This document shows, piece by piece, positions 18,915-58,560 of a DNA stretch of 64,000 nucleotides (its first letter is position 1; each line of letters opens with the position of its first letter). The notes beneath the pieces are model-generated. The model ran no database searches. It was not told where the DNA came from and saw only the letters and a list, made by a program, of their open reading frames with translations. The stretch comes from Actinomycetes bacterium (GTDB lineage Bacteria > Actinomycetota > Thermoleophilia > UBA2241). The DNA lies in assembly GCA_029547745.1 (NCBI GenBank), contig JAKPOQ010000033.1:59129-123128 (forward strand), given 5' to 3'. Position numbers and translations under genes: made by a program.

Positions 18915-18994
18915 CGGCCTGCGTCCTCCTTAACGCACGACGCCCCGAAGCAGGCGGCTTCGGGGCGCTCGACGACGGTACGCTACGTCGCGTG

Positions 18995-19112
18995 TGGTCT
19001 TCTTCCATCCGGACTCTGACCGTCGGCCCAGGAGTTCCACCTGGTCAACCTCTTGCGAGGCTCGCGGGCTCTCACCGCCGGTGGGGACTTCCACCCCGCC
19101 CTGAAGCCACTC
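18995..19112 (-). promoter_or_regulatory. FMN riboswitch (RFN element) in the ribDE(BA)H leader
   Basis: The minus-strand RNA reads AGGGCGGGGUGGAAGUCCCCACCGGCGGUGAGAGCCCGCGA...GGUGGAACUCCUGGGCCGACGGUCAGAGUCCGGAUGGAAGAAGAC, matching the conserved FMN aptamer blocks. A TATACT -10 box sits at 19129-19134 and a 9-bp GC hairpin (GCCCCGAAG...CUUCGGGGC) lies between the aptamer and the Shine-Dalgarno sequence. Confidence 0.88.
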
Positions 19113-44888: not shown

Positions 44889-45923
44889 TCAGCTCTCGTC
44901 GAACAGCGTCCCGGCCTGCGCCGGCGGTCTGAGGCCACAGTGCACGAAGCCGCTGCGCGTGAGCACGCGGCCCCGTGGCGTGCGTTTGAGGAAGCCCTGC
45001 ATGATGAGGTACGGCTCGTAGACGTCCTGCAGGGTGTCGGCCTCTTCGCCGAGGGCGACGGCGAGCGTGTCGAGACCCACCGGACCACCGTCGAACTTCT
45101 GCGCGATCGCACAGAGGATGTCGCGGTCGAGCTTGTCGAGGCCCTCGCCGTCGACCTGGAAGAGGTCGAGGGCGGCGAGACAGATGTCGTGCTCGATGCG
45201 GCCCTCGTGGCGTACCTCGGCATAGTCGCGCACGCGGCGCAGCAGACGGTTGGCCACGCGCGGCGTTCCGCGGGCGCGACTCGCGATCTCGCCCGCCGAG
45301 GCGTCGTCGATCTCGAGGCTGAGGATGCCGGCCGAGCGATGCACGATCGCCGTGAGCTCGTCGACGTCGTAGTACTCAAGGCGTTGCCAGACACCGAAGC
45401 GGTCGCGCAACGGCGTCGTCAGCAGACCGGTGCGCGTCGTCGCCCCGATGAGCGTGAACGGCGGCACCTGCATGCGGATGCTGCGAGCCGCCGGTCCCTC
45501 GCCGATCATGATGTCGATCTCGAAGTCCTCCATGGCCGGGTAGAGGACCTCCTCCACCGCGGCATTGAGACGATGGATCTCGTCGACGAACAGGACGTCG
45601 CCGCGCTGCAGGTTGGTGAGCAGCCCGGCGACGTCGACCTTGCGCTCGAGCGCCGGCCCGGAGGTCGTGTGGACGTTCACGCCGAGCTCGATGGCGATGA
45701 TGCCGGCGAGCGTCGTCTTGCCCAGACCGGGCGGTCCGGCGAGCAACACATGGTCGAGCGTGTCGCCGCGGTTCCTGGCCGCGGCGACGAAGATCTCGAG
45801 CTGCTCCTTGGCGGCGCGCTGGCCGACGAAGTCGGCGAAGCGTCTGGGTCGTAGCGAGACCTCGACGTCGCGTTCCTCCGGACGCTCGACCGGGTCGCCG
45901 ATCCTGTCCCGACGGGTGCTCAC
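44889..45923 (-). CDS. ruvB: Holliday junction branch migration helicase RuvB
   Basis: [14 protein letters not shown] Walker A, DEIHRL, TTR sensor and C-terminal winged helix. Confidence 0.94.
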
Positions 45924-46525
45924 GACGGCCTCGCGCGCGAGAGCGCATGCTGCAGGAGCGCCTGAAGGTCCGCGCCCTCGGGCGCGCCGCGCAGCGCCTC
46001 TTCTGCCTCGCGCAGCGTGAGACCGAGGTTCTGCAACGCCGACCGCGCCTCGAGGACGATGTCGGCGCCCGGCGTGGGCGCGCCGGCGAAGCCGTCGCCG
46101 GCCGGCGCGCCCACGCCGGGCGCCCCCACCCTGTCCTTGAGCTCCACGACGAGCCGCTGGGCGAGGCGTTTGCCGATGCCGGGGATGGACTCGAACTTCT
46201 TCACGTCCTCGAAGGCGATCGCCCTCTCGAGCTCCGTCACCGGGTACCCCGAGAGGACGGCGAGCGCGACCTTGGGCCCCACTCCGCTCACCCCGATGAG
46301 AGCGAGGAAGAAAGCGCGCTCGCGGGCGCTGCGAAACCCGAACAGTTGCAGAGCGTCCTCGCGCACGTGCAGGTACGTGTGGAGCTGGACCTCCTCGCCG
46401 ACCTGGCGCGACAGGGCCGAGAGCGTCGGCCCTGCGGCGAGCAGCTCGAGGCCCAGCCCGCCGACGGCGATCACGGCGCGTTCCGCGTCGGCCGACAACA
46501 CCGCGCCCTTGACGGAGGCGATCAC
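45920..46525 (-). CDS. ruvA: Holliday junction DNA helicase RuvA
   Basis: MIASVKG..., the HhH motifs [16 protein letters not shown] and the C-terminal RuvB-binding domain; ATGA overlap with ruvB. Confidence 0.9.
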
Positions 46526-46553
46526 GACTTCACCCGGTCCGTGACGGGGGCGA

Positions 46554-47063
46554 TCACTGCTTCACTCCGTCCTTTGAGGCAGCCAACATCGCGCCGGCGT
46601 GGTTGTGGGCGTGACAGATAGCGACGGCGAGCGCGTCGGCGGCGTGGTCGGGCTGCGGGATACGGTCGAGTCCGAGCAAGACCTTGGTCATCTCCTGGAC
46701 CTGGAGCTTGGTCGCCCGACCATACCCCGTGACCGACATCTTGATCTGCAGGGGCGAGTACTCGAAAGGCGGCTGAGCGAGATCGGCGACCGCGAGGATG
46801 AGGACACCGCGCGCCTGCCCCACAGCGAGTGCGGTCTTGACGTTCACGTTGACGAACAACTCCTCGATCGCCACCACGTCCGGGTGGAAGCGTCGCAGCA
46901 GGGAGCGCGCCTCGTCGTAGATGCGACGCAGGCGCACGGGACTGGGGTCTTTCGCCGACGTGACGATGCATCCATGGCCGCGGGAGCGTAACCGGTTCCC
47001 CTCGTACTCGACCACGCCCCAGCCTGTGCTGGCGGTGCCCGGGTCGATGCCCAGCACGATCAC
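46554..47063 (-). CDS. ruvC: Crossover junction endodeoxyribonuclease RuvC
   Basis: MIVLGIDPGTASTGWGVV... and the RNase H-like catalytic residues. Confidence 0.92.
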   Translation of the reverse strand: MIVLGIDPGTASTGWGVVEYEGNRLRSRGHGCIVTSAKDPSPVRLRRIYDEARSLLRRFHPDVVAIEELFVNVNVKTALAVGQARGVLILAVADLAQPPFEYSPLQIKMSVTGYGRATKLQVQEMTKVLLGLDRIPQPDHAADALAVAICHAHNHAGAMLAASKDGVKQ

Positions 47064-47095
47064 CGTCGCCCCCGCCCCCGTCCGCGACGTCGGCC

Positions 47096-47845
47096 TCAGC
47101 CGGCGATCGCCTCGAGGACCTCCTCGGGGATGTCGAAGTTCGCGTAGACCTCCTGGACGTCATCCGAGTCTTCGAGCGCATCGATGATCCTCATGGTCTT
47201 GCGGGCGTCGTCCTCGTCGAGTTTCACGGTGTTCTTCGGCACCATCGTGAGCTCGGCCTGCTCGAGCTGGATGCCCGCCGCCTGCAGCGCATCGCGCACG
47301 GCAGCGAACTCGGACGGTTGCGTGAGCACCTCGAACTCGGCGCCGTCCTGGACGACGTCGTCGGCGCCGGCCTCGATAGCGGCGGCCATGACGGTGTCCT
47401 CGTCGTACTTCGTCCCGTCGACCACGATCGAACCGCGCCGCTCGAAGCCCCAGGCCACGGCGCCGGGCTGGGCCAATGTGCCTCCATGCTTGCTGAAGAT
47501 GTTGCGTACCTCGGCGGCGGAGCGGTTCCGGTTGTCGGTGAGGACCTCCACCATGATCGCGACGCCGGCTGGCCCGTAACCCTCGTAGACGATGCTCTCA
47601 TACTGGTCGGCGTCGCCGCCGCCCCCGCCACGCTGGATGGCGCGTTCGATGTTCTCTTTCGGCATCGACTCGGCCCTGGCCTTCTCGATCGCGTTGGCCA
47701 GGGCCAGGTTGGTGCCGGGGTCGGCGCCGCCCTCGCGGGCGGCCACGGTGATCGCTCGCGACAGTTTGCTGAACAGCTTGCCGCGCCTGGCGTCGGTCTT
47801 GCCCTTCTTGTGCTTGATGGTCGCCCACTTGGAGTGCCCGGACAC
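47096..47845 (-). CDS. yebC: YebC/PmpR family DNA-binding transcriptional regulator
   Basis: SGHSKWATIKHKKGKTDARRGKLFSKLSRAI is the YebC N-terminal signature; GTG start at 47845 with AGAAGGGGG upstream. Confidence 0.9.
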   Translation of the reverse strand: MSGHSKWATIKHKKGKTDARRGKLFSKLSRAITVAAREGGADPGTNLALANAIEKARAESMPKENIERAIQRGGGGGDADQYESIVYEGYGPAGVAIMVEVLTDNRNRSAAEVRNIFSKHGGTLAQPGAVAWGFERRGSIVVDGTKYDEDTVMAAAIEAGADDVVQDGAEFEVLTQPSEFAAVRDALQAAGIQLEQAELTMVPKNTVKLDEDDARKTMRIIDALEDSDDVQEVYANFDIPEEVLEAIAG

Positions 47846-47859
47846 CAGGACCCCCTTCT

Positions 47860-48612
47860 CTAGCGGTTGCGGATCGCGGCGGGCTGGGCGCGGCGCGCCC
47901 TGGGCGGCTCCGGGGCGACTGCGCCGCAGACGCCGGCCGTCGCCGCCGTGCGTGCCGCGCCGCCGCCCATCATCGCGATGAACGACTCGTGCACGCGCGT
48001 GTCGTCGGTGAGCTCCGGATGGAACGCGGTCACGAGGACGCGCCCCTGACGCGCAGCGACGATGTGACCGTCGTGACGCGCCAGCACTTCGACGGCGGGG
48101 CCGGCGCGTTCGATCCACGGCGCACGGATGAAGACCGCGCGCACGGGCCCGCCGGAGACGCCTGCGATCGCCAGGTCCGCCTCGAAACTGGCGACCTGGC
48201 GCCCGAAGGCGTTGCGGCGGGCGACGATGTCCATGAGGCCGAGCGTCGGCGGGTGGCCCTCGACCGTCTCGCGGGCTACGGTGATGAGTCCGGCGCACGT
48301 GCCGAAGACCGCTCCTCCGCGGGCGTGGAACGCCCGGATCGGAGCGCTCAGCCCGTGCGCCTCCATGAGCTTGTGGATCGTGGTGCTCTCGCCGCCCGGG
48401 ATGACGAGACCGGCGAGGCCGTCCAGCTCGCGCGGACGGCGCACCTCGCGCGCCGCGCACCCCAGGCGTTCGAGCATCGTACGGTGCTCGCGGAAGTCGC
48501 CCTGGAGGGCGAGGACACCGACCGTGAGGCCGACCCCCGGGCCTGTCGGCTCGGGTCGCGACTCGGGCGAGAGGATCGAGTCCGGCCGCCGTGTGCTACG
48601 CGGGACGCTCAC
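47860..48612 (-). CDS. pdxT: Pyridoxal 5'-phosphate synthase glutaminase subunit
   Basis: [16 protein letters not shown] (catalytic Cys) and a His/Glu pair typical of class I glutamine amidotransferases; GTG start at 48612 with a 25 aa N-terminal extension. Confidence 0.88.
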
Positions 48613-48625
48613 CGCGGCGGCGCGC

Positions 48626-49510
48626 TCACCAGCCGCGATGCTGGATCTTCGCCTCGGCAGGCATGCGCGCCGCGTCGGTGCCGGCCATCGGTTCGCCGAG
48701 CCCCATCGACACCTCCGCGAGGACCTTCGCGTCGCGGTAGTTGGTCGCGGCGTTGACGATCGCGTTAGCGCGGCTCTGCGGGTCTTCGCTCTTGAAGATG
48801 CCGGAACCCACGAAGACGCCTTCGGCGCCGAGCTGCATCATGAGCGCCGCGTCGGCCGGCGTCGCGATGCCCCCGGCCGAGAAGTTGACCACGGGGAGCT
48901 TGCCGTTCTCGGCCACCCAGCTCACGAGCTCGTACGGCGCCGCGAGCGTCTTGGCGGCCATGAACAGCTCGTCCTCGTCGAGGGTCTGCAGGTGGTGGAT
49001 CTCGCCCATGATGGTGCGCATGTGGCGGACCGCCTCGACGACGTCGCCTGTACCGGCTTCGCCCTTGGTGCGGATCATCGCCGCGCCCTCGCTGATGCGC
49101 CGCAGCGCCTCGCCGAGGTTCACCGCCCCGCACACGAACGGGACCGTGAACTTCCACTTGTTGATGTGGTTGGACTCGTCCGCGGGGGTGAGGACCTCGC
49201 TCTCGTCGATGTAGTCGACCTCGAGGGCCTCGAGGATCTGCGCCTCGACGAAATGCCCGATGCGGGCCTTTGCCATGACGGGGATGGAGACCGACTTCTG
49301 GATCTCGCGGATCTTGGTCGGGTCGGCCATGCGCGCCACACCGCCCTGGGCACGGATGTCGGCCGGCACGCGCTCCAACGCCATGACCGCGCAGGCGCCC
49401 GCGTCCTCCGCGATCTTCGCCTGTTCGGCGCTCGTGACGTCCATGATCACGCCGCCCTTGAGCATGTCGGCAAGGCCGCTCTTGACCCGCATTGTACCGA
49501 TGTCAGACAC
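48626..49510 (-). CDS. pdxS: Pyridoxal 5'-phosphate synthase lyase subunit
   Basis: [23 protein letters not shown]..., ending ...QHRGW; GTG start at 49510 sits 5 nt after GGAGG, alternative ATG at 49492. Confidence 0.92.
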
Positions 49511-49636
49511 GGGAACCTCCACTTGTTGCCACACCTCGATTGTACCGTCAGTACGGTACGGACCGCCACCGTTCCGACCCTGCCGGAACCGCCCGTCGTG
49601 CGGGAAAAACGTATCGCCGCGGCGACGCCCGGAGCG

Positions 49637-51712
49637 TCAGTTCTTCTGCGCCTCCTCGCGCTCCTTCTTCGCCTCGGCGACGACCTTCGGTGTGAGGTGC
49701 GCGGGCACCTCTTCGTAACGCAGGAACTCCATCGTGTAGTCGCCGCGCCCGCCCGTCATCGACGTGAGGTCGGGCGCGTAGCTGAGCATCTCAGCCAGCG
49801 GCACCTCGGCGGTGATGACGTTCGTGTGACCACGCGGCGTCGTGCCGAGCACGCGGCCGCGGCGTGAGTTGAGGTCGCCGATGATGTCGCCCACGCTCTC
49901 TTCGGGGACCGTGATCTCGACGTTCATGATGGGCTCGAGGAGGACCGGCTGGGCCTTCTCGACCGCGGCCTTGAAGCCGACGGAGCCGGCGATCTGGAAG
50001 GCCATGTCGCTCGAGTCGACGGGGTGATGCTTGCCGTCGTAGAGCTTGACCTCGACGTCGACCACGGGGTAGCCGGCGAGGATGCCCTCGGTCATCGCCG
50101 CCCGCACGCCCTTCTCGACGGCCGGGATGAAGTTGCGCGGGATGGCGCCGCCGACGATCTTGTCGACGAACTCGAACCCTTCGCCGCGCGGCCGCGGCGA
50201 CACCTCGAGCCAGGTGTCGGCGAACTGGCCGCGCCCGCCGGTCTGCTTCTTGTGCTTGCCCTCGGCCTTGGCCGTACCCTTGATGGTCTCGCGGTACGGC
50301 ACCCGCGGCGGTTTGAGCTCGACTTCGGTGCCGAAGCGCCGCTTCATGCGCTCGACCGTCACTTCGACATGGACCTGACTCATGCCACCGATGATCATCT
50401 CGCCCGTCTGCGGGTCGCGATGGACGTCGAGCATGGGGTCCTCTTCGGCGAGGCGTTTGAGCGCCGCCAGGACCTTGTCTTCCTCGCCCTTGCTCTTCGC
50501 CGTCACGGCGAAGCTCATGAGCGGGGCCGGGAACGCGATCGCCGGGAAGCTCACCACGTTGCCCTCGGCGCACAGGGTATCGCCGGTGACGACGTCCTTG
50601 AGTTTGGCGATGGCGCCGATGTCGCCGGCGACGAGCTTGTCGACCGGCTTCATCTCTTTGCCCATCGGCTTGAGCAACTGCCCGAGGCGCTCCTTATGAC
50701 CGTCGCGTGCGACCACAAGCTGGCTGTCGCTGGCGACCGTCCCCTGGAAGACGCGAAAGACGTTCACGTGTCCGCTGAACGGATCGGCGAGAGTCTTGAA
50801 GACGAACGCCGCGACAGGCCTCGCCGGGTCGCAGGCCAACGTCACCTCGGCGCCGTCCGGGCCGACGGCGACCGGCGGAGCCACGTCGGCCGGAGACGGC
50901 GTCAGGGCGAGCAGACCGAACAGGAGGTCGACCCCGATCTGGCGCGTCGCCGAGCCGCAGGCCACCGGGAAGAGCTGCCCGCCGGCGACGGCCGCGGCGA
51001 AGGCGCGGGCGAGCTCGTCGGCGGTGATCTCCTCCTCCATCAGGTACTTCTCGGCGAGGTCGTCGTCGGTGCTGGCGATGGCATCGATCAGCTTGTCGCG
51101 CGCCGCCGAGGCCTCGTCGGCCAGCTCTGCCGGGATGTCCGCGACCTGTGCCTTGCCGCTTTCGTACACGAAGGCCTTCATGGTCAGGAGGTCGACGACC
51201 CCCTTCAGATCGTGCTCCCTGCCGATCGGCAGGTGTGCGGCCACGACCTGGGGGCCGAAAGCCTCCTGCAAGGCACTGACGGCGGCTTCGAGATCGGCGC
51301 GTTCGCGATCGAGCATGTTGCAGAAGAACATCCGCGCCAGGCCGCGGTCGGCGGCGCGCTTCCAGAGGCGCTCCGTCTGGACCTCGACCCCAAGCACCGA
51401 GTTGACCACCATGACGGCCGTCTCGACCACGTGCAACGCGGCGATCGTGTCGGCGAGGAAGCTGGGGTCGCCAGGCGTGTCGACGAGGTCGAAGGTGAGT
51501 CCGGCGCGGTCGACGTGGGCGAGGGTAGCGGAGAGACTGAGCTGGCGCTTCTTCTCGTCCTCATCCCAGTCTGACACCGTCGTGCCTTCGGCAACGCTGC
51601 CCAGGCGCGTGATGACACCGGCCTCGTACAACAGCGCCTCGAAGAGCGACGTCTTGCCGGTACCGCGATGTCCCACGAGGGCGACGTTCCTGACCTTGCC
51701 TGGGTCGTTCAT
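49637..51712 (-). CDS. Elongation factor G paralogue (EF-G2 / FusA2-like translational GTPase)
   Basis: 691 aa with a G domain (VGHRGTGKTSLFEAL, DTPGD, NMLD) and EF-G domains II to V; GAGGAG Shine-Dalgarno 9 nt upstream. Confidence 0.88.
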   Translation of the reverse strand: MNDPGKVRNVALVGHRGTGKTSLFEALLYEAGVITRLGSVAEGTTVSDWDEDEKKRQLSLSATLAHVDRAGLTFDLVDTPGDPSFLADTIAALHVVETAVMVVNSVLGVEVQTERLWKRAADRGLARMFFCNMLDRERADLEAAVSALQEAFGPQVVAAHLPIGREHDLKGVVDLLTMKAFVYESGKAQVADIPAELADEASAARDKLIDAIASTDDDLAEKYLMEEEITADELARAFAAAVAGGQLFPVACGSATRQIGVDLLFGLLALTPSPADVAPPVAVGPDGAEVTLACDPARPVAAFVFKTLADPFSGHVNVFRVFQGTVASDSQLVVARDGHKERLGQLLKPMGKEMKPVDKLVAGDIGAIAKLKDVVTGDTLCAEGNVVSFPAIAFPAPLMSFAVTAKSKGEEDKVLAALKRLAEEDPMLDVHRDPQTGEMIIGGMSQVHVEVTVERMKRRFGTEVELKPPRVPYRETIKGTAKAEGKHKKQTGGRGQFADTWLEVSPRPRGEGFEFVDKIVGGAIPRNFIPAVEKGVRAAMTEGILAGYPVVDVEVKLYDGKHHPVDSSDMAFQIAGSVGFKAAVEKAQPVLLEPIMNVEITVPEESVGDIIGDLNSRRGRVLGTTPRGHTNVITAEVPLAEMLSYAPDLTSMTGGRGDYTMEFLRYEEVPAHLTPKVVAEAKKEREEAQKN

Positions 51713-51759
51713 CCGGGTTCTCCTCGATTCGTCTCAGCCGCGGGGTGCACCAAGGCGGG

Positions 51760-51777
51760 CGCGAGCGGCCGCTCGCG
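51760..51777. promoter_or_regulatory. Perfect 18-bp palindrome CGCGAGCGGCCGCTCGCG in the EF-G paralogue promoter/leader (candidate operator)
   Basis: Exact inverted symmetry, centred about 57 nt upstream of the ATG and just downstream of a TGcTAGACT extended -10 box (51794-51799). Confidence 0.5.
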
Positions 51778-51833
51778 TCGTTCGGAAGGATGAAGTCTAG
51801 CACAGGGCGATCGCATGGGAACGGCGCCGAGTC

Positions 51834-51930
51834 GCCGCCTTGAGGCGCCGCAAAGGGAGCATGGCTGAGGCGCCGCGGCGGGGACAGAAGCGGCGCTTCG
51901 TCGCGCGGCGGCGCGGCGCCTCAAGGCGGC
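51834..51930. repeat. 18-bp perfect inverted repeat pair (GCCGCCTTGAGGCGCCGC and GCGGCGCCTCAAGGCGGC) separated by 61 nt; the right arm overlaps the dinB stop
   Basis: Arms at 51834-51851 and 51913-51930 are exact reverse complements; a third partial copy GAGGCGCCGC lies at 51867. Confidence 0.7.
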
Positions 51931-53090
51931 GCAAGCTGCGCCGCCGCCAGGCCCAGCGCCTTGAAGCCGTACTTGCCGCGCACCTGGTCGACGGCCGCGC
52001 CCAGGGCGATCTCGCGCCAGCCCTCGTCGAGGGTGAGCTGGAAGGCGTCGTGGCTGAGGTCGCCGAGGTCCACGCCGACGAGCCTGACCCAGCGCACCCC
52101 GACGTCGACCTCGTCGAGCAGCCCGAGGAGCGTTCGGTACATGGCGGCCGTCGTCGCCGCCGGGCGCGACAGCGTCCGGCGGCGCGTCACCGTATGGAAG
52201 GTGCTGTAGCGAAGTTTGAGGGCGACGCTGCGCGCCGCGAGGCCGTGGCGACGCAGGTCGGCCACGGCGCGATCGGCGAGGCCGAGGAGAGCGGCGCGCA
52301 GCACCTCGAGGTCGTTGGTGTCGACAGCGAACGTGGTCTCGCGGCCGACCGACTTGGGCAGCGGGCGGCGGGCGGTGACCGGCGCGAGACTGCGCCCGAA
52401 GGCGAGCTGGCGCAACCCGTACGCGCCGCGCCCGAACGCCGCCGCAAGGACGGCGAACGGCACGTCCTGGAGCATGCCCACGGTGGTGAGGCCGAGAGCG
52501 GCGAGACGCTCCTCGGTGACCGGGCCGATGCCGTGCAGGGCGCCGACCGGCAACTCGCGCAGGCGGCCGCCGACGTCGGCTTCGCCGAGCTCGCCGATAC
52601 CCGCCGGTTTGTCGAGACTGGCGGCGACCTTGGCAAGCAGCTTCGTGGGCCCGATGCCGATCGAGCAGGTGAGGCCGTGTTCGGCGTACACCCGCTCCTG
52701 GATGCGGCGGGCGATCGCGCGCGGCGGGCCGAACAGGCGGCGGCTGCCGGTGACGTCGAGGTACGCCTCGTCGATCGACGCCACCTCGACCTGGTCGGTG
52801 AAGCTGCGCAGCAAATCGACGAGGCGGTCGTGCACAACGCCGTAGGCCGTGAAGTCGGGCGCCAGGAACGCGCCCTGCGGGCAGAGCCGCTCGGCTTGGC
52901 CGATCGGCATGGCCGTGCGCACGCCGCAGGCGCGCGCCTCGTACGAGCAGGTGGCGACGACGCCGCGACCGCCACGCGACCCGCCGACGATGACGGGCAA
53001 GCCGCGCAGCTCGGGGCGTCGCGCCTGCTCGACCGAGGCGAAGAAGGCGTCCATGTCGACGTGGAGGATGGCCCGGTGCGATACGAACAT
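51921..53090 (-). CDS. dinB: DNA polymerase IV (translesion polymerase DinB)
   Basis: ILHVDMDAFFASVE, SIDEAYLDVT and the Y-family fold. Confidence 0.9.
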   Translation of the reverse strand: MFVSHRAILHVDMDAFFASVEQARRPELRGLPVIVGGSRGGRGVVATCSYEARACGVRTAMPIGQAERLCPQGAFLAPDFTAYGVVHDRLVDLLRSFTDQVEVASIDEAYLDVTGSRRLFGPPRAIARRIQERVYAEHGLTCSIGIGPTKLLAKVAASLDKPAGIGELGEADVGGRLRELPVGALHGIGPVTEERLAALGLTTVGMLQDVPFAVLAAAFGRGAYGLRQLAFGRSLAPVTARRPLPKSVGRETTFAVDTNDLEVLRAALLGLADRAVADLRRHGLAARSVALKLRYSTFHTVTRRRTLSRPAATTAAMYRTLLGLLDEVDVGVRWVRLVGVDLGDLSHDAFQLTLDEGWREIALGAAVDQVRGKYGFKALGLAAAQLAPP

Positions 53091-53097
53091 ACGTTCG
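53084..53097. promoter_or_regulatory. LexA (SOS/Cheo) box CGAACATACGTTCG overlapping the dinB start codon
   Basis: Exact match to the Gram-positive/actinobacterial LexA consensus CGAAC-N4-GTTCG; the dinB ATG (53088-53090) lies inside the box. Confidence 0.75.
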
Positions 53098-53156
53098 TAT
53101 GATACCGGGCCCCACCGCCGATGGTCAACGTCTCGGACGGGCGACGTGCCCCCGCG

Positions 53157-53426
53157 TCAGTCGCCGGCGTCGAACGGGACGCGCGGCACGTCGCCCCACA
53201 GGTTCTCGAGGCGGTAGAACTCGCGCGCCGCCGGCGTGAACACGTGGACGACGACGTCGAGGTAGTCGAGCAGGATCCAGTCGCCGTCGCGCTCGCCCTC
53301 GATGCGCGCCGGCCGCAGACGGTGGCGCAGACGCGTCAGGATCTCGTCGACGATGGCCCTGGTCTGACGCGTGGTCGCGCCGGTGGCGATGACGAAGTAG
53401 TCGGTGTAGGTGACGGCGGCGGCCAT
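53157..53426 (-). CDS. rsfS: Ribosome silencing factor RsfS (Iojap); the conserved N-terminus extends upstream to 53525 without a canonical start
   Basis: TDYFVIATGATTRQTRAIVDEI...WILLDYLDVVVHVF is the RsfS core. The 33 codons upstream of the first ATG encode VSDAPDAQALRDLALEIAGFAAGKKAKDVVVLE, which aligns with RsfS N-termini. That frame opens with GTA at 53525, overlapping the upstream TAA stop as GTAA. Confidence 0.75.
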   Translation of the reverse strand: MAAAVTYTDYFVIATGATTRQTRAIVDEILTRLRHRLRPARIEGERDGDWILLDYLDVVVHVFTPAAREFYRLENLWGDVPRVPFDAGD

Positions 53427-53521
53427 CTCGAGGACGACGACGTCCTTGGCCTTCTTCCCCGCCGCGAACCCGGCGATCTCGAGCGCCAGGTCGCGCAGAG
53501 CCTGCGCATCCGGTGCGTCGC

Positions 53522-54667
53522 TTACTGCAGGTCCTTTGCCGTCAGGTCTTTGCCGACGATGACGACGACGGTCGTCGGCCCCAGCCCGTCGCCCTCGAGG
53601 ACGACGCCGCGACCGAGTATAGCACGCACCTCCCCGGCCACCTGGAGCGCCTCGGCGCCCGCCAGGATCTGCGTCTTGCGGTAGTCGAACGAGTCCGCGT
53701 TCCCCGTCTCGGGGAGCTCGACGTCGAGCGTCGCCAGACGCTCGACGACGAGCTCCCCGATGCCCAGCTCCCCGCTCCCGTTGCGCACGAGGACGGTGAA
53801 CGGGGCCGAGAAACCCGGCGCGCGACGCGTGATCTCGGCCATGATCCTCTCCCGGTCCGGCCGATAGACGAACTGTCCCAACGCCGTCCTGCCGATCGAA
53901 GGAAGCCGTTCCACATCGGGGTCACCGGCCGTCGCCGTGGTCAGGACCTGACGCAGGTAGCGGCGTTCCGAGCCACGAGCGGCGCCGGCGACGGACGTGA
54001 TCAGCCGCGAGCGCTCGGCCTCGGGCTGCAGGGCGGCCGCGGCGAGGACGGCGCGCACGAGGGCCTCCTGCATGGCCGCCTCGTCGGCGCCGTCCTCGCC
54101 AGTCGCCGCCAACAGCTCGCCGATCTGCTCGCGCGGTACCGCGAACCGCCCCTTGTACTCCTGCAAGACCCCACCCACCTCGAGCTGGACGGGATGCTCG
54201 AGCTTCACCCACAGCTTGGCGCTCGTCACCAGACGCTCGAGATCGGCGTAGGCGAGCGTGTACTGGAGGTCGATGCGCGCCCCGAGCAACCGCTCCAGGT
54301 CGTCCGCCAGCTCGCCGGCGGCGAGCATGTCGCCGGCGAGGACGTACTCGCCGCCCTCCCGCTCCAGGAGCAGGACCCGCGGCACCGTGTACAGGCTCAC
54401 GCTGCCGTCGTCGGCGTCGCGCAGGGCGAGCACGGCGCCGGGCTGGCCTTCGCCGGCCTGGCCGAGGGAGATCAGGGCGAGGTAGCCGGCGCGCGGTTGC
54501 GGCTCTCCCTCGCCCAGGATCCAGCCCGCGAGCCGGCCGGCGCCGGCCACTGCCGCGAACGCCACGAACACCGCCAGCGCCACGAGGAACACGACCTGTC
54601 GCCGCTGGACCACGCGTTCGCGACGGCGTCGCAGCCGTCCCACTCGGTAGCCTTCAGCGCGCGCCAT
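53522..54667 (-). CDS. LytR_C (cell envelope-related transcriptional attenuator C-terminal) domain membrane protein
   Basis: N-terminal transmembrane segment and a C-terminal LytR_C-like domain (FTVLVRNGSGELGIGELVVERLATLDVEL...VVIVGKDL). Confidence 0.6.
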   Translation of the reverse strand: MARAEGYRVGRLRRRRERVVQRRQVVFLVALAVFVAFAAVAGAGRLAGWILGEGEPQPRAGYLALISLGQAGEGQPGAVLALRDADDGSVSLYTVPRVLLLEREGGEYVLAGDMLAAGELADDLERLLGARIDLQYTLAYADLERLVTSAKLWVKLEHPVQLEVGGVLQEYKGRFAVPREQIGELLAATGEDGADEAAMQEALVRAVLAAAALQPEAERSRLITSVAGAARGSERRYLRQVLTTATAGDPDVERLPSIGRTALGQFVYRPDRERIMAEITRRAPGFSAPFTVLVRNGSGELGIGELVVERLATLDVELPETGNADSFDYRKTQILAGAEALQVAGEVRAILGRGVVLEGDGLGPTTVVVIVGKDLTAKDLQ

Positions 54668-57267: not shown

Positions 57268-58560
57268 TCACGCGAACTCCAGCGTCGTCTCGCCGACGAG
57301 CACCGTGTCTCCCGGCACCGCCCCGGCCCGACGCAGGGCCTCGTCGACCCCGGCACGGGCGATGACCTCTTGCAGGTAGGCGACCGCCTCCTCGTTGTCG
57401 AGGTCGGTCTTCGCCACCAGCCGCTCGAGGGCGGCGCCCGAGATCCGGAACGCGCCAGCCTCACGCGCCACAGTGAAGCTCTCGAGGCGGTCCTGCCCGG
57501 GGCGCAGGACGACGGGCGCCGCGGAGGCGGCCGCGGCGGCAGAAGCCGCCGCGGCCGCCTCCGCGGCGCGCACGTCCCTCACGAGCCTCGCCATGCGGCC
57601 GGTCAGCGCCTCGAGGCCGTCACCGCGGATCGCGGAGACGGCGACGACCGCGTCCGGCCAACCAAGCTCGGCGACGGCCGCGACCGCGACCTCGATCTCG
57701 GCAGGGTCGAGAAGATCAGCCTTGTTCAGGGCGACGACCGCCGGTCGCGCGGCGAGGCCCTCGCGGAACGCGGCGAGCTCGCCGCGCACCGTATGCAGCG
57801 CGTCCAGCACGACCTCAGTCCCGGGTCCGGCGTCCACGACGTAGACCAGCGCGGCCGTGCGTTCGACATGCGCCAGAAAGCGGTCGCCGAGACCGGCGCC
57901 GTCACTGGCGCCCTCGATGAGTCCGGGGACGTCGGCGACGACGATGGGGCTACCGTCCGCTTCGATGACCCCGAGGTTGGGCTCGATCGTCGTGAACGGG
58001 TAGGCGGCGATCCTCGGTCGGGCCCGCGTGAGCGCCGCCAGCAGCGACGACTTACCCGCGTTCGGCAGGCCGACGAGACCCACATCGGCCAGCAGCTTCA
58101 TGCGCAGGTCGAGCCAGCGTTCGTCCCCCGCCAGCCCGCGCTCGGCGAAACGCGGCGCCTGGCGCGTCGAGCTCTTGAAGCACGCGTTCCCGCGCCCGCC
58201 CTCACCGCCGCGGGCGACGACCAGGCGCTGCCCCTCGACCGTCAGGTCGCCGAGCAGCGCGCCGTCGTCGCCCGCGACCTGCGTCCCAACGGGCACCGGG
58301 ACGATGAGGTCTTTGCCGGCCGCACCGTGGCGCTGCGACCCGCGGCCGTGGCCGCCGGCGGCAGCGCGCAGGTGCGGCCGCCGGCACAAGGTCTCCAGGT
58401 CGCGGACCTGGCGCGTCGCCACGAGAATCACGTCACCGCCGCGACCGCCGTCGCCGCCATCCGGACCGCCTCGCGGGACGTACTTCTCGCGCCGGAAGCT
58501 CACACAGCCGTCACCGCCGCGTCCGGCGCGCACACAGATCCTGACCCGATCGGCGAGCAT
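57268..58560 (-). CDS. obg: GTPase Obg/CgtA
   Basis: Obg fold N-terminus with glycine-rich repeats, G domain ([24 protein letters not shown]) and a C-terminal OCT domain. Confidence 0.93.

Follow-up and report, generated by a model that had tools for sequence, protein, structure and literature searches.

EF-G paralogues of the EFG II kind are recognised by a Gly in the G1 motif (GHxxxGKT) and by the absence of the RGITI motif from G2 (PMC3150367). The subfamily, to which Thermus EF-G2 and Mycobacterium FusA2 belong, is encoded outside the str operon and retains the full five-domain architecture of EF-G (Margus et al. 2011, PMC3150367), and the protein considered here resembles it in each of these respects. 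Its gene lies in a 64-kb stretch of DNA (64,000 nucleotides, hereafter the window) from a Thermoleophilia-like organism, for which an earlier analysis of the letters alone (the sequence-only reading) had claimed an EF-G-like GTPase of 691 aa. This protein is present with all five EF-G domains (Pfam). Its G1 motif is GHRGTGKT, with Gly before His, and RQLSL is found where translational GTPases have RGITI, so that both distinguishing features of EFG II are seen. The NCBIfam ‘elongation factor G’ subfamily NF009381 is matched with 908 bits, TIGR00484 is barely passed (667.6 against a cut-off of 659.4), and the Tet-protection models are not reached (tet_protect, 300 bits against a cut-off of 775).

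Unlike the EFG II subfamily, however, the protein remains below the cut-off of the NCBIfam EF-G2 equivalog (660 against 890), has DTPGD in place of DTPGH, which puts an Asp at the position of the catalytic His, and has NMLD in place of NKxD. These are not peculiarities of one strain: among the 120 closest homologues DTPGD occurs in 115, GHRGTGKT in 115, NMLD in 116 and RGITI in none. As these motif states are near-universal in the homologues, and as the gene is not followed by tuf at any of 160 related loci, the further claim that the protein is an EF-G paralogue, by its motifs one of the EFG II kind, is supported within the window and the related loci.

A further difference from described members of the subfamily is the genomic setting. 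Genomes and metagenomes were scanned with the protein as a guide and exact-protein look-ups were added, which together gave 172 loci, among them about 25 syntenic relatives that are mostly labelled Thermoleophilia. Homologous proteins with 72–89% identity number more than 100. At every locus with at least 72% identity of the EF-G-like protein, dinB is found directly upstream on the same strand, within the wider gene order rsfS - dinB - EFG II - pdxS - pdxT - yebC - ruvCAB. In the window both genes are on the minus strand, separated by 208 bp (Table 1). A LexA-type box, TACGAACNTATGTTCGTA, covers the dinB ATG in 24 of 25 syntenic relatives, and in the window the only perfect GAAC-N4-GTTC (53085-53096) is located over this start codon. 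The pair of dinB and EFG II is thus fixed behind a conserved LexA box, an arrangement of dinB next to fusA2/EF-G2 for which a literature search found no description. That dinB is SOS-controlled, as the sequence-only reading had put it, is well supported because the predicted box overlaps the dinB ATG in 24/25 loci. The spacer between dinB and the EF-G-like gene (51713-51920) contains no LexA-like box, even when one mismatch is allowed. A putative dinB promoter (TTGACC/TATCAT) has a TAnnAT-like hexamer at the equivalent position in relatives; as it would end 8 nt before the ATG, the dinB mRNA may be leaderless or near-leaderless. To us the fixed pairing of a LexA-box dinB with an EFG II gene, together with the His-less GTPase centre, is the most interesting residue of the analysis. 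It comes from a poorly studied actinobacterial class and gives a testable hint that expression of this EF-G paralogue, devoid of the catalytic His, accompanies the DNA-damage response.

Table 1. Features of the region from dinB to the EF-G paralogue gene (positions refer to the window; minus-strand features are given in their reading direction)
Feature	Position	Strand	Remarks
Putative dinB promoter	53128-53099	minus	TTGACC 53128-53123, 18-nt spacer, TATCAT 53104-53099, 8 nt before ATG
LexA/SOS (Cheo-type) box TACGAACGTATGTTCGTA	53082-53099	no strand	overlaps dinB start codon
dinB (DNA polymerase IV)	53090-51921	minus	389 aa; Pfam IMS, IMS_C, IMS_HHH; NCBIfam DNA polymerase IV models
Inverted-repeat arm 1 (dinB-proximal)	51931-51913	minus	holds dinB stop TGA 51921-51923; in all 6 conspecific contigs
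Inverted-repeat arm 2 (promoter-proximal)	51851-51833	minus	strain-specific
Extended -10 (TGnTAGACT) of EF-G-like gene, CCTGTGCTAGACT	51806-51794	minus	putative promoter, conserved block
CU-rich stretch TCATCCTTCCGA	51793-51782	minus	straddles expected transcription start
Perfect 18-bp palindrome CGCGAGCGGCCGCTCGCG	51777-51760	minus	7-bp stem, GGCC loop in 5' UTR
Nested alternative hairpin	51771-51735	minus	P2 51771-51765/51741-51735; P3 51762-51758/51751-51747; MFE fold of full leader
Shine-Dalgarno GAGGAGA + 6-nt spacer before ATG	51725-51713	minus	CGAGGAGA invariant in 21/21 leaders
EF-G paralogue gene (EFG II-like)	51712-49637	minus	691 aa; DTPGD for DTPGH, GHRGTGKT, NMLD, without RGITI

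The conserved unit of the spacer is the promoter of the EF-G paralogue gene together with its leader, while the perfect palindrome and the inverted repeat are strain-specific, derived states. The block CCTGTGCTAGACT is unique in the window. When 21 distinct leaders (group 1; EF-G-like proteins of 74–100% identity) were aligned, it proved invariant in 19, the exceptions being L169 (TGCTAAACT) and L170 (TGCTACACT), and TGCTA[G/A/C]ACT was found in all 21 at 82–90 nt ahead of the start codon. The flank upstream of the block could not be aligned among the same 21 leaders. The extended -10 box TGcTAGACT (TGCTAGACT) of the sequence-only reading is located at 51802-51794 on the minus strand, and its conservation in relatives makes it very probably a real promoter element of the EF-G-like gene. 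In most relatives the dinB stop lies 15–39 nt before TAGACT, and a TAGACT block so near the end of dinB would look like the pattern expected of an extended -10 promoter that is independent of a -35 region. TAGACT is absent from a more distant group with 72–73% identity (L005-L007, L087, L088).

Downstream of CCTGTGCTAGACT, the leader follows a fixed order: a CU-rich stretch, a GC-rich middle, an A/C-rich spacer (GAGACGA..CAC), and CGAGGAGA-N6-ATG. The CU-rich stretch is kept in all group-1 leaders, with the variants TCACCC.., CCATCC.., TCTCCACTCC and TCAGCCTCCC. In L167, L081, L082, L171 and L172 the leader of about 84 nt is 85–88% identical to that of the window, compared to 60–67% at the four-fold degenerate sites of the adjacent gene, and this difference argues that the leader as a whole is under purifying selection. 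Searches of the window and 10 relatives gave no Rfam match in the leader. Promoter and leader thus form an element that is uncatalogued yet ordinary-looking; conserved as it is in front of an EFG II gene, it has modest value. A 14-codon upstream ORF without a Shine-Dalgarno sequence, which ends with ATGA at the start codon of the EF-G-like gene, was noticed by eye in the window and in L017.

Several lines of evidence are consistent with a structured leader. The full leader gave fold z-scores below zero in each of 14 sequences (-0.15 to -3.5; -1.9 for the window), as did the GC-rich middle in 20 of 21 (averaging about -1.4), the middle region of the window itself folding no better than shuffles (z = -0.1). 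One long hairpin, equivalent to the nested P2/P3 hairpin of the window, is predicted in nearly all relatives, and it persists even though the sequence is wholly different between subgroups (L084, L085, L169, L170). For the window leader, two mutually exclusive folds are predicted, the palindrome hairpin and the nested hairpin, as the palindrome overlaps the 5' strands of the latter. When the close subgroup was aligned without regard to structure, both folds were paired in 87–89% of cells (88.6% for the palindrome stem), compared to 14–54% in slid controls, and each showed a single double-sided change. Double-sided changes are few, with only one or two per fold model, and shuffle controls were non-significant (53/500 for the palindrome stem); the counts for the other subgroup gave the same picture. 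Covariation counts on three alignments are thus compatible with pairing, are not significant, and do not allow a choice between palindrome and nested hairpin. RNAalifold, applied to MAFFT alignments, returned trivial pairs alone, because helix registers differ between subgroups. A covariance model (R1) re-found all 14 group-1 leaders then known, and in addition gave a weak match at a non-syntenic locus (L026; E = 0.007, on both strands) and a reverse-strand self-match of L083. As R1 misaligned subgroup 1a, it was left out of the pair counts. Leader structure is plausible and consistent with these results, while covariation support for any specific predicted fold is weak.

One reading of such a leader is a platform controlled as a riboswitch, as a thermometer or by a protein, where CCUUCC in the CU-rich element would pair either with a nearby mimic of the Shine-Dalgarno sequence (GGAG, GGAC or GGAGGC) or with the true Shine-Dalgarno sequence and start codon, and would so switch translation. 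UCAUCC/UUCC is indeed complementary to GGAUGA/GGAG, and this pairing closes the MFE fold in most sequences. In many relatives the mimic and the CU-rich element form a local hairpin of 3–7 bp, for example GCUUCC-GCAC-GGAGGC in L089, AGCCUUCC-GAGA-GGAGGCU in L169 and UCCC-ACG-GGGA in L170. Purifying selection on the whole leader and the lack of a known Rfam family would also fit a regulatory platform. However, according to partition function calculations the native Shine-Dalgarno sequence is not less accessible than in dinucleotide shuffles, with a median percentile of 0.51 if transcription starts right after the -10 and of 0.63 if it starts 6 nt further on. The start-codon helix is broken in L017-type leaders (C.A), in L162-type leaders (G.G), and in L169 and L170, and the mimic has been lost in the lineage of the window (GGAC to GAC). 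As neither CUUCC nor its partner GGAG varies, this pairing shows no covariation. Also, if transcription starts at the usual 7 nt from the -10, the transcript may lack half of the CU block. Sequestration of the Shine-Dalgarno sequence by the CU-rich 5' end is not supported, given an accessibility no lower than that of shuffles and a start-codon helix that is broken in several lineages, and we regard a switching leader in general as rather unlikely.

The inverted repeat upstream of the promoter has a different distribution. The sequence-only reading had described a pair of 18-bp arms with a 61-nt spacer, one arm covering the dinB stop; complementarity (100%), spacer and position are as described, but the arms are 19 nt long. 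Six contigs with 99–100% identical EF-G protein constitute the conspecific set, and of these L163 alone has both arms, which are thus limited to the window and L163. Four conspecific contigs (L162, L164, L165, L166) keep arm 1 and have arm 2 replaced beyond its first 8 nt, so that arm 2 is absent even from strains with a 100% identical EF-G protein, and in L161 arm 1 is kept and the sequence just beyond it is masked by Ns. Relatives at 85–89% protein identity lack the inverted repeat altogether. The pair cannot be upheld as a conserved element. The interval between dinB and the promoter is about 80–100 nt longer in the window than in L008, L081, L082 and L167, and the additional sequence includes the repeat spacer and arm 2. 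None of 200 shuffles had a perfect repeat with arms of at least 19 nt and a spacer of at most 100 nt. The window has three of them, the other two being located in low-complexity coding inter-domain linkers of ruvA (46064-46130) and obg (57516-57571), and we therefore take such long repeats to mark GC-rich low-complexity DNA rather than regulation. A mobile element or MITE was rejected as the source of the repeat, as no other copy occurs in the window or, beyond the conspecific contigs, in the 172 loci.

The conspecific contigs show two spacer alleles and one mosaic (L166), and the difference between the alleles is concentrated in the spacer: window and L164 differ at 31 of 208 positions there, compared to 5 of 1170 in dinB and 7 of 2076 in the EF-G gene. 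The second allele keeps the CGACCC-CTGTGC junction that is also seen in relatives, and arm 2 of the window is for this reason considered to be derived. The first 8 nt of arm 2, GCGGCGCC, are all that it has in common with the other intergenic allele; as both alleles carry them, arm 2 represents an extension of an existing complementarity from 8 to 19 nt. Clustered changes that perfect imperfect inverted repeats are a signature of template-switch mutation at quasi-palindromes. The perfect palindrome and the 19-nt repeat would be best explained as recent template-switch corrections of GC-rich quasi-palindromes, a probable origin which here is visible between conspecific alleles.

It might still be argued that the repeat ends the SOS-induced dinB transcript and/or that the GC hairpin of the leader attenuates read-through into the EF-G paralogue gene. 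The repeat region begins at the dinB stop and is predicted to be very stable (-100 kcal/mol, z = -3.2), so that in strains bearing the repeat it could stall transcription at, or stabilise, the 3' end of dinB. Moreover, in the relatives dinB and the -10 lie too close together to accommodate a terminator, which means that any dinB termination would fall in the leader. In the group with 72–73% identity (L005-L007, L087, L088) a GC hairpin of 11–12 bp followed by UUUG is located about 60 nt before the start, where TAGACT is absent, and this could be an attenuator in that group. Nevertheless, a scan of 51400-52300 gave no terminator-like site, and a U-tract is lacking after each of the three structures, that is repeat, palindrome and nested hairpin (ACUCGG follows the repeat and CCCGCC the palindrome). 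Termination without a U-tract is disputed for the actinobacterial RNA polymerase. The repeat is also missing from most conspecific strains and from all other relatives, and it is for this reason not the dinB terminator of the lineage. We therefore consider termination or attenuation by these structures unlikely. Since the relatives offer no room for a terminator, SOS-driven dinB transcripts probably run into the EF-G paralogue gene. Attenuation via a leader peptide, as for tet(M), can be dismissed: the gene product does not belong to the ribosomal protection proteins (tet_protect, see above), there is no U-tract, and the sole small ORF (21 codons, 51862-51797) falls in the strain-specific insert.

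A more far-reaching possibility is that the leader is an undescribed cis-regulatory RNA with a ligand or protein partner which, in combination with read-through from a leaderless LexA-box dinB, ties the His-less GTPase to DNA damage or translational stress. We think this doubtful. If it were true, the two leader alleles, which differ sharply within one population, would be functional expression variants.

The 18-bp perfect palindrome that the sequence-only reading had pointed out downstream of TGcTAGACT is indeed found at 51760-51777, where it had been taken for a strong operator candidate or, alternatively, a 5'-UTR hairpin. The exact palindrome occurs only once in the 64-kb window, and no second copy was found there even when three mismatches were allowed. 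At 72% GC, the window has 7 perfect palindromes of at least 18 bp where 1.6 would be expected, and at least one was found in 77% of dinucleotide shuffles, so that the palindrome is unremarkable by itself.

Nor is its symmetry conserved. The exact palindrome is limited to three conspecific contigs (the window, L163, L166), while the other conspecific allele has CGCCAGCGGCCGCCGGCG at this position and relatives at 85–91% identity have CGCGAGCGACCGCCCGCG. An A.C mismatch is found at palindrome positions 5/14 both in that allele and in the non-conspecific relatives of subgroup 1a, the latter having an additional A/C at the palindrome centre. In the subgroup with 78–82% identity (1b), the left (5') half is replaced by the unrelated ACGACCGG. 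The stem of the other conspecific allele also carries a single G:C to C:G double change, and this one ‘compensatory’ change could result from a one-step template switch rather than from selection.

It is very unlikely that a dimeric transcription factor uses the palindrome as its operator and, positioned at about +10 to +27, represses the EF-G paralogue gene. Such a role is suggested by the perfect symmetry of a dyad that directly follows a conserved -10, and by conservation of the left half GCGAGCG in the close subgroup. Conservation of the leader sequence in that subgroup would also suit a role in binding DNA or protein. However, the dyad is imperfect in all relatives except the three conspecific contigs, its left half is swapped in subgroup 1b, and it does not recur in the window. 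The other conspecific allele alters both half-sites and preserves base pairing, as would be expected of pairing in an RNA and not of a fixed protein site. There is no regulator gene adjoining the EF-G paralogue gene, the neighbours being rsfS, dinB, pdxS, pdxT, yebC and ruvCAB. Considering that the symmetry is not conserved in relatives and that 18-bp palindromes are common in the window, an operator seems unlikely. The 5'-UTR hairpin is the better of the two original readings. The palindrome is located within the 5' UTR expected from the extended -10. With the perfect symmetries being strain-level accidents, a framing of this spacer in terms of operator and inverted repeat carries little weight. 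The locus illustrates cleanly how a reading based on sequence only is misled by perfect palindromes in genomes of 72% GC.

We favour, with moderate confidence, a reading where the spacer provides a promoter and a structured 5' leader that acts at the RNA level, the perfect symmetries being recent corrections of quasi-palindromes. According to this reading, the EF-G paralogue gene would have a promoter of its own in the spacer, of the sigma-70-type extended -10 kind (CCTGTGCTAGACT), yielding a 5' leader of about 80 nt under apparent purifying selection. This leader would begin with CU-rich sequence and lead up to a strong Shine-Dalgarno sequence; between them lie a GC-rich middle, predicted to fold into a single long stem-loop or two short ones, and then a spacer rich in A and C. 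The palindrome may then be regarded as the form that the 5' half of the GC-rich middle takes in this strain, and in the mRNA it would form a 7-bp stem-loop from about 10 nt past the 5' end. The stem-loop most likely acts as RNA, by protecting or stabilising the 5' end and by keeping GC-rich sequence paired locally so that the Shine-Dalgarno sequence stays open, and is probably not a protein operator. Both the perfect symmetry of the palindrome and the 19-nt repeat would represent recent strain-specific states that arose by template-switch correction. At most, the repeat might serve the dinB mRNA as a strong 3' hairpin, which would shield the EF-G promoter in part from SOS-driven read-through. 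The sequence features, their conservation pattern, the distribution of alleles and the predicted folds are shown here; that the promoter is active, where transcription starts, that the leader works as RNA and how the symmetries arose by mutation are inferred from them.

The components of this reading are reminiscent of several described systems. Actinobacterial extended -10 promoters (TGnTAnnnT) need no -35 region, and the promoter described here is like them in its exact TGcTAGACT, which is conserved in relatives, in its unconserved -35 region and in a suitable distance of about 90 nt to the start codon. A peculiarity not shared by promoters in general is that the -10 is followed by 12 nt which are conserved and unusually rich in pyrimidines. 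In leaders and RNA thermometers that sequester the Shine-Dalgarno sequence (ROSE, fourU), a CU-rich element is likewise complementary to the Shine-Dalgarno sequence, with an alternative partner possible, but the predicted occlusion in the EF-G leader does not exceed that of shuffles, and there is neither an Rfam match nor covariation. A parallel to the preferred reading is provided by the mRNA-stabilising stem-loops at the 5' terminus of E. coli ompA and B. subtilis aprE/ermC. As in those leaders, a GC-rich stem-loop is predicted about 10–30 nt from the expected 5' end, and structure is retained in the EF-G leader as the sequence drifts between subgroups. Unlike them, the EF-G leader has its hairpin some way in from the very 5' end, two exclusive folds are possible, and the structure is a predicted one. 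The origin of the perfect symmetries has its counterpart in the template switching at quasi-palindromes that is described by the Ripley model and exemplified by thyA and other hotspots in E. coli. Here as there, imperfect GC-rich repeats have been perfected in one allele and changes are clustered, at 31 in the 208 bp of the spacer versus 5–7 per flanking gene. It is the comparison of the alleles alone that points to this mechanism, with a complementarity of 8 nt having grown to 19 nt through sequence that complements the other arm exactly.

The EF-G paralogue (EFG II) lies directly downstream of dinB in a co-directional cluster, rsfS-dinB-EFG II-pdxS-pdxT-yebC-ruvC-ruvA-ruvB, which is conserved in the related loci L161–L172. 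The dinB-EFG II pair itself is found in all relatives with at least 72% identity, and a literature search retrieved no description of this pairing. At the head of the pair, the dinB start codon occupies the middle of a LexA-type box, TACGAACNTATGTTCGTA, which is kept in 24 of 25 syntenic relatives (those listed being L001–L008, L017, L081–L089, L130, L164, L167, L169, L171 and L172). A TATCAT motif is located 8 nt upstream of the ATG, and from this position the dinB mRNA appears to be leaderless.

When the window is set against the conspecific L162, L164, L165 and L166, the spacer between the two genes stands out as a hotspot of divergence. Relative to L164, 31 of its 208 positions differ, and the same comparison gives 5 differences in 1170 positions for dinB and 7 in 2076 for the EF-G gene. 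The spacer variants comprise two alleles and one mosaic (L166), an allele comparison that is restricted by N runs and altered gene calls around dinB in several conspecific metagenome contigs (the JGI contigs L161, L162 and L165), which are assembly or masking artefacts. Five loci with 72–73% identity (L005–L007, L087 and L088) are without the TAGACT promoter motif, and their leaders carry a CCUC element followed by an 11–12 bp GC hairpin and UUUG, about 60–110 nt upstream of the EF-G-like start. This hairpin with UUUG could be an attenuator inside a dinB-EFG II operon.

The window contains further repeats and palindromes and an FMN riboswitch, listed in the table. Two perfect inverted repeats with arms of 24–26 nt fall within genes; long perfect hairpins thus occur beyond non-coding DNA in this genome. 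Including the one under study, there are 7 perfect palindromes of at least 18 bp in 64 kb, compared with 1.6 expected from shuffled sequences. A 21-codon ORF in the inverted-repeat spacer is probably spurious, because it has no Shine-Dalgarno sequence and the segment is missing from relatives.

Features of the dinB-EFG II region and other elements of the window
Feature	Position	Strand	Remarks
Gene cluster	44889-53700	-	
EF-G paralogue	49637-51712	-	
dinB-EF-G spacer	51713-51920		
dinB start	53082-53128		LexA-type box
21-codon ORF MLPLRRLKAATRRRSHAIALC*	51797-51862	-	stop is TAG of the -10 box
Perfect inverted repeat	46064-46130		inside ruvA, coding inter-domain linker
Perfect inverted repeat	57516-57571		inside obg, coding inter-domain linker
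Six further perfect palindromes (18-22 bp)	10213, 15544, 20231, 21156, 30174, 57769		
FMN riboswitch (RF00050)	18992-19112	-	103 bits, E = 7e-23

The EF-G paralogue has DTPGD, with Asp replacing the catalytic His of switch II, as well as NMLD where NKxD is expected and RQLSL where RGITI is expected. Nearly all of its 120 closest homologues share these alterations (DTPGD in 115, NMLD in 116, RGITI absent from all 120), which suggests that its GTP hydrolysis chemistry may be unlike that of canonical EF-G.
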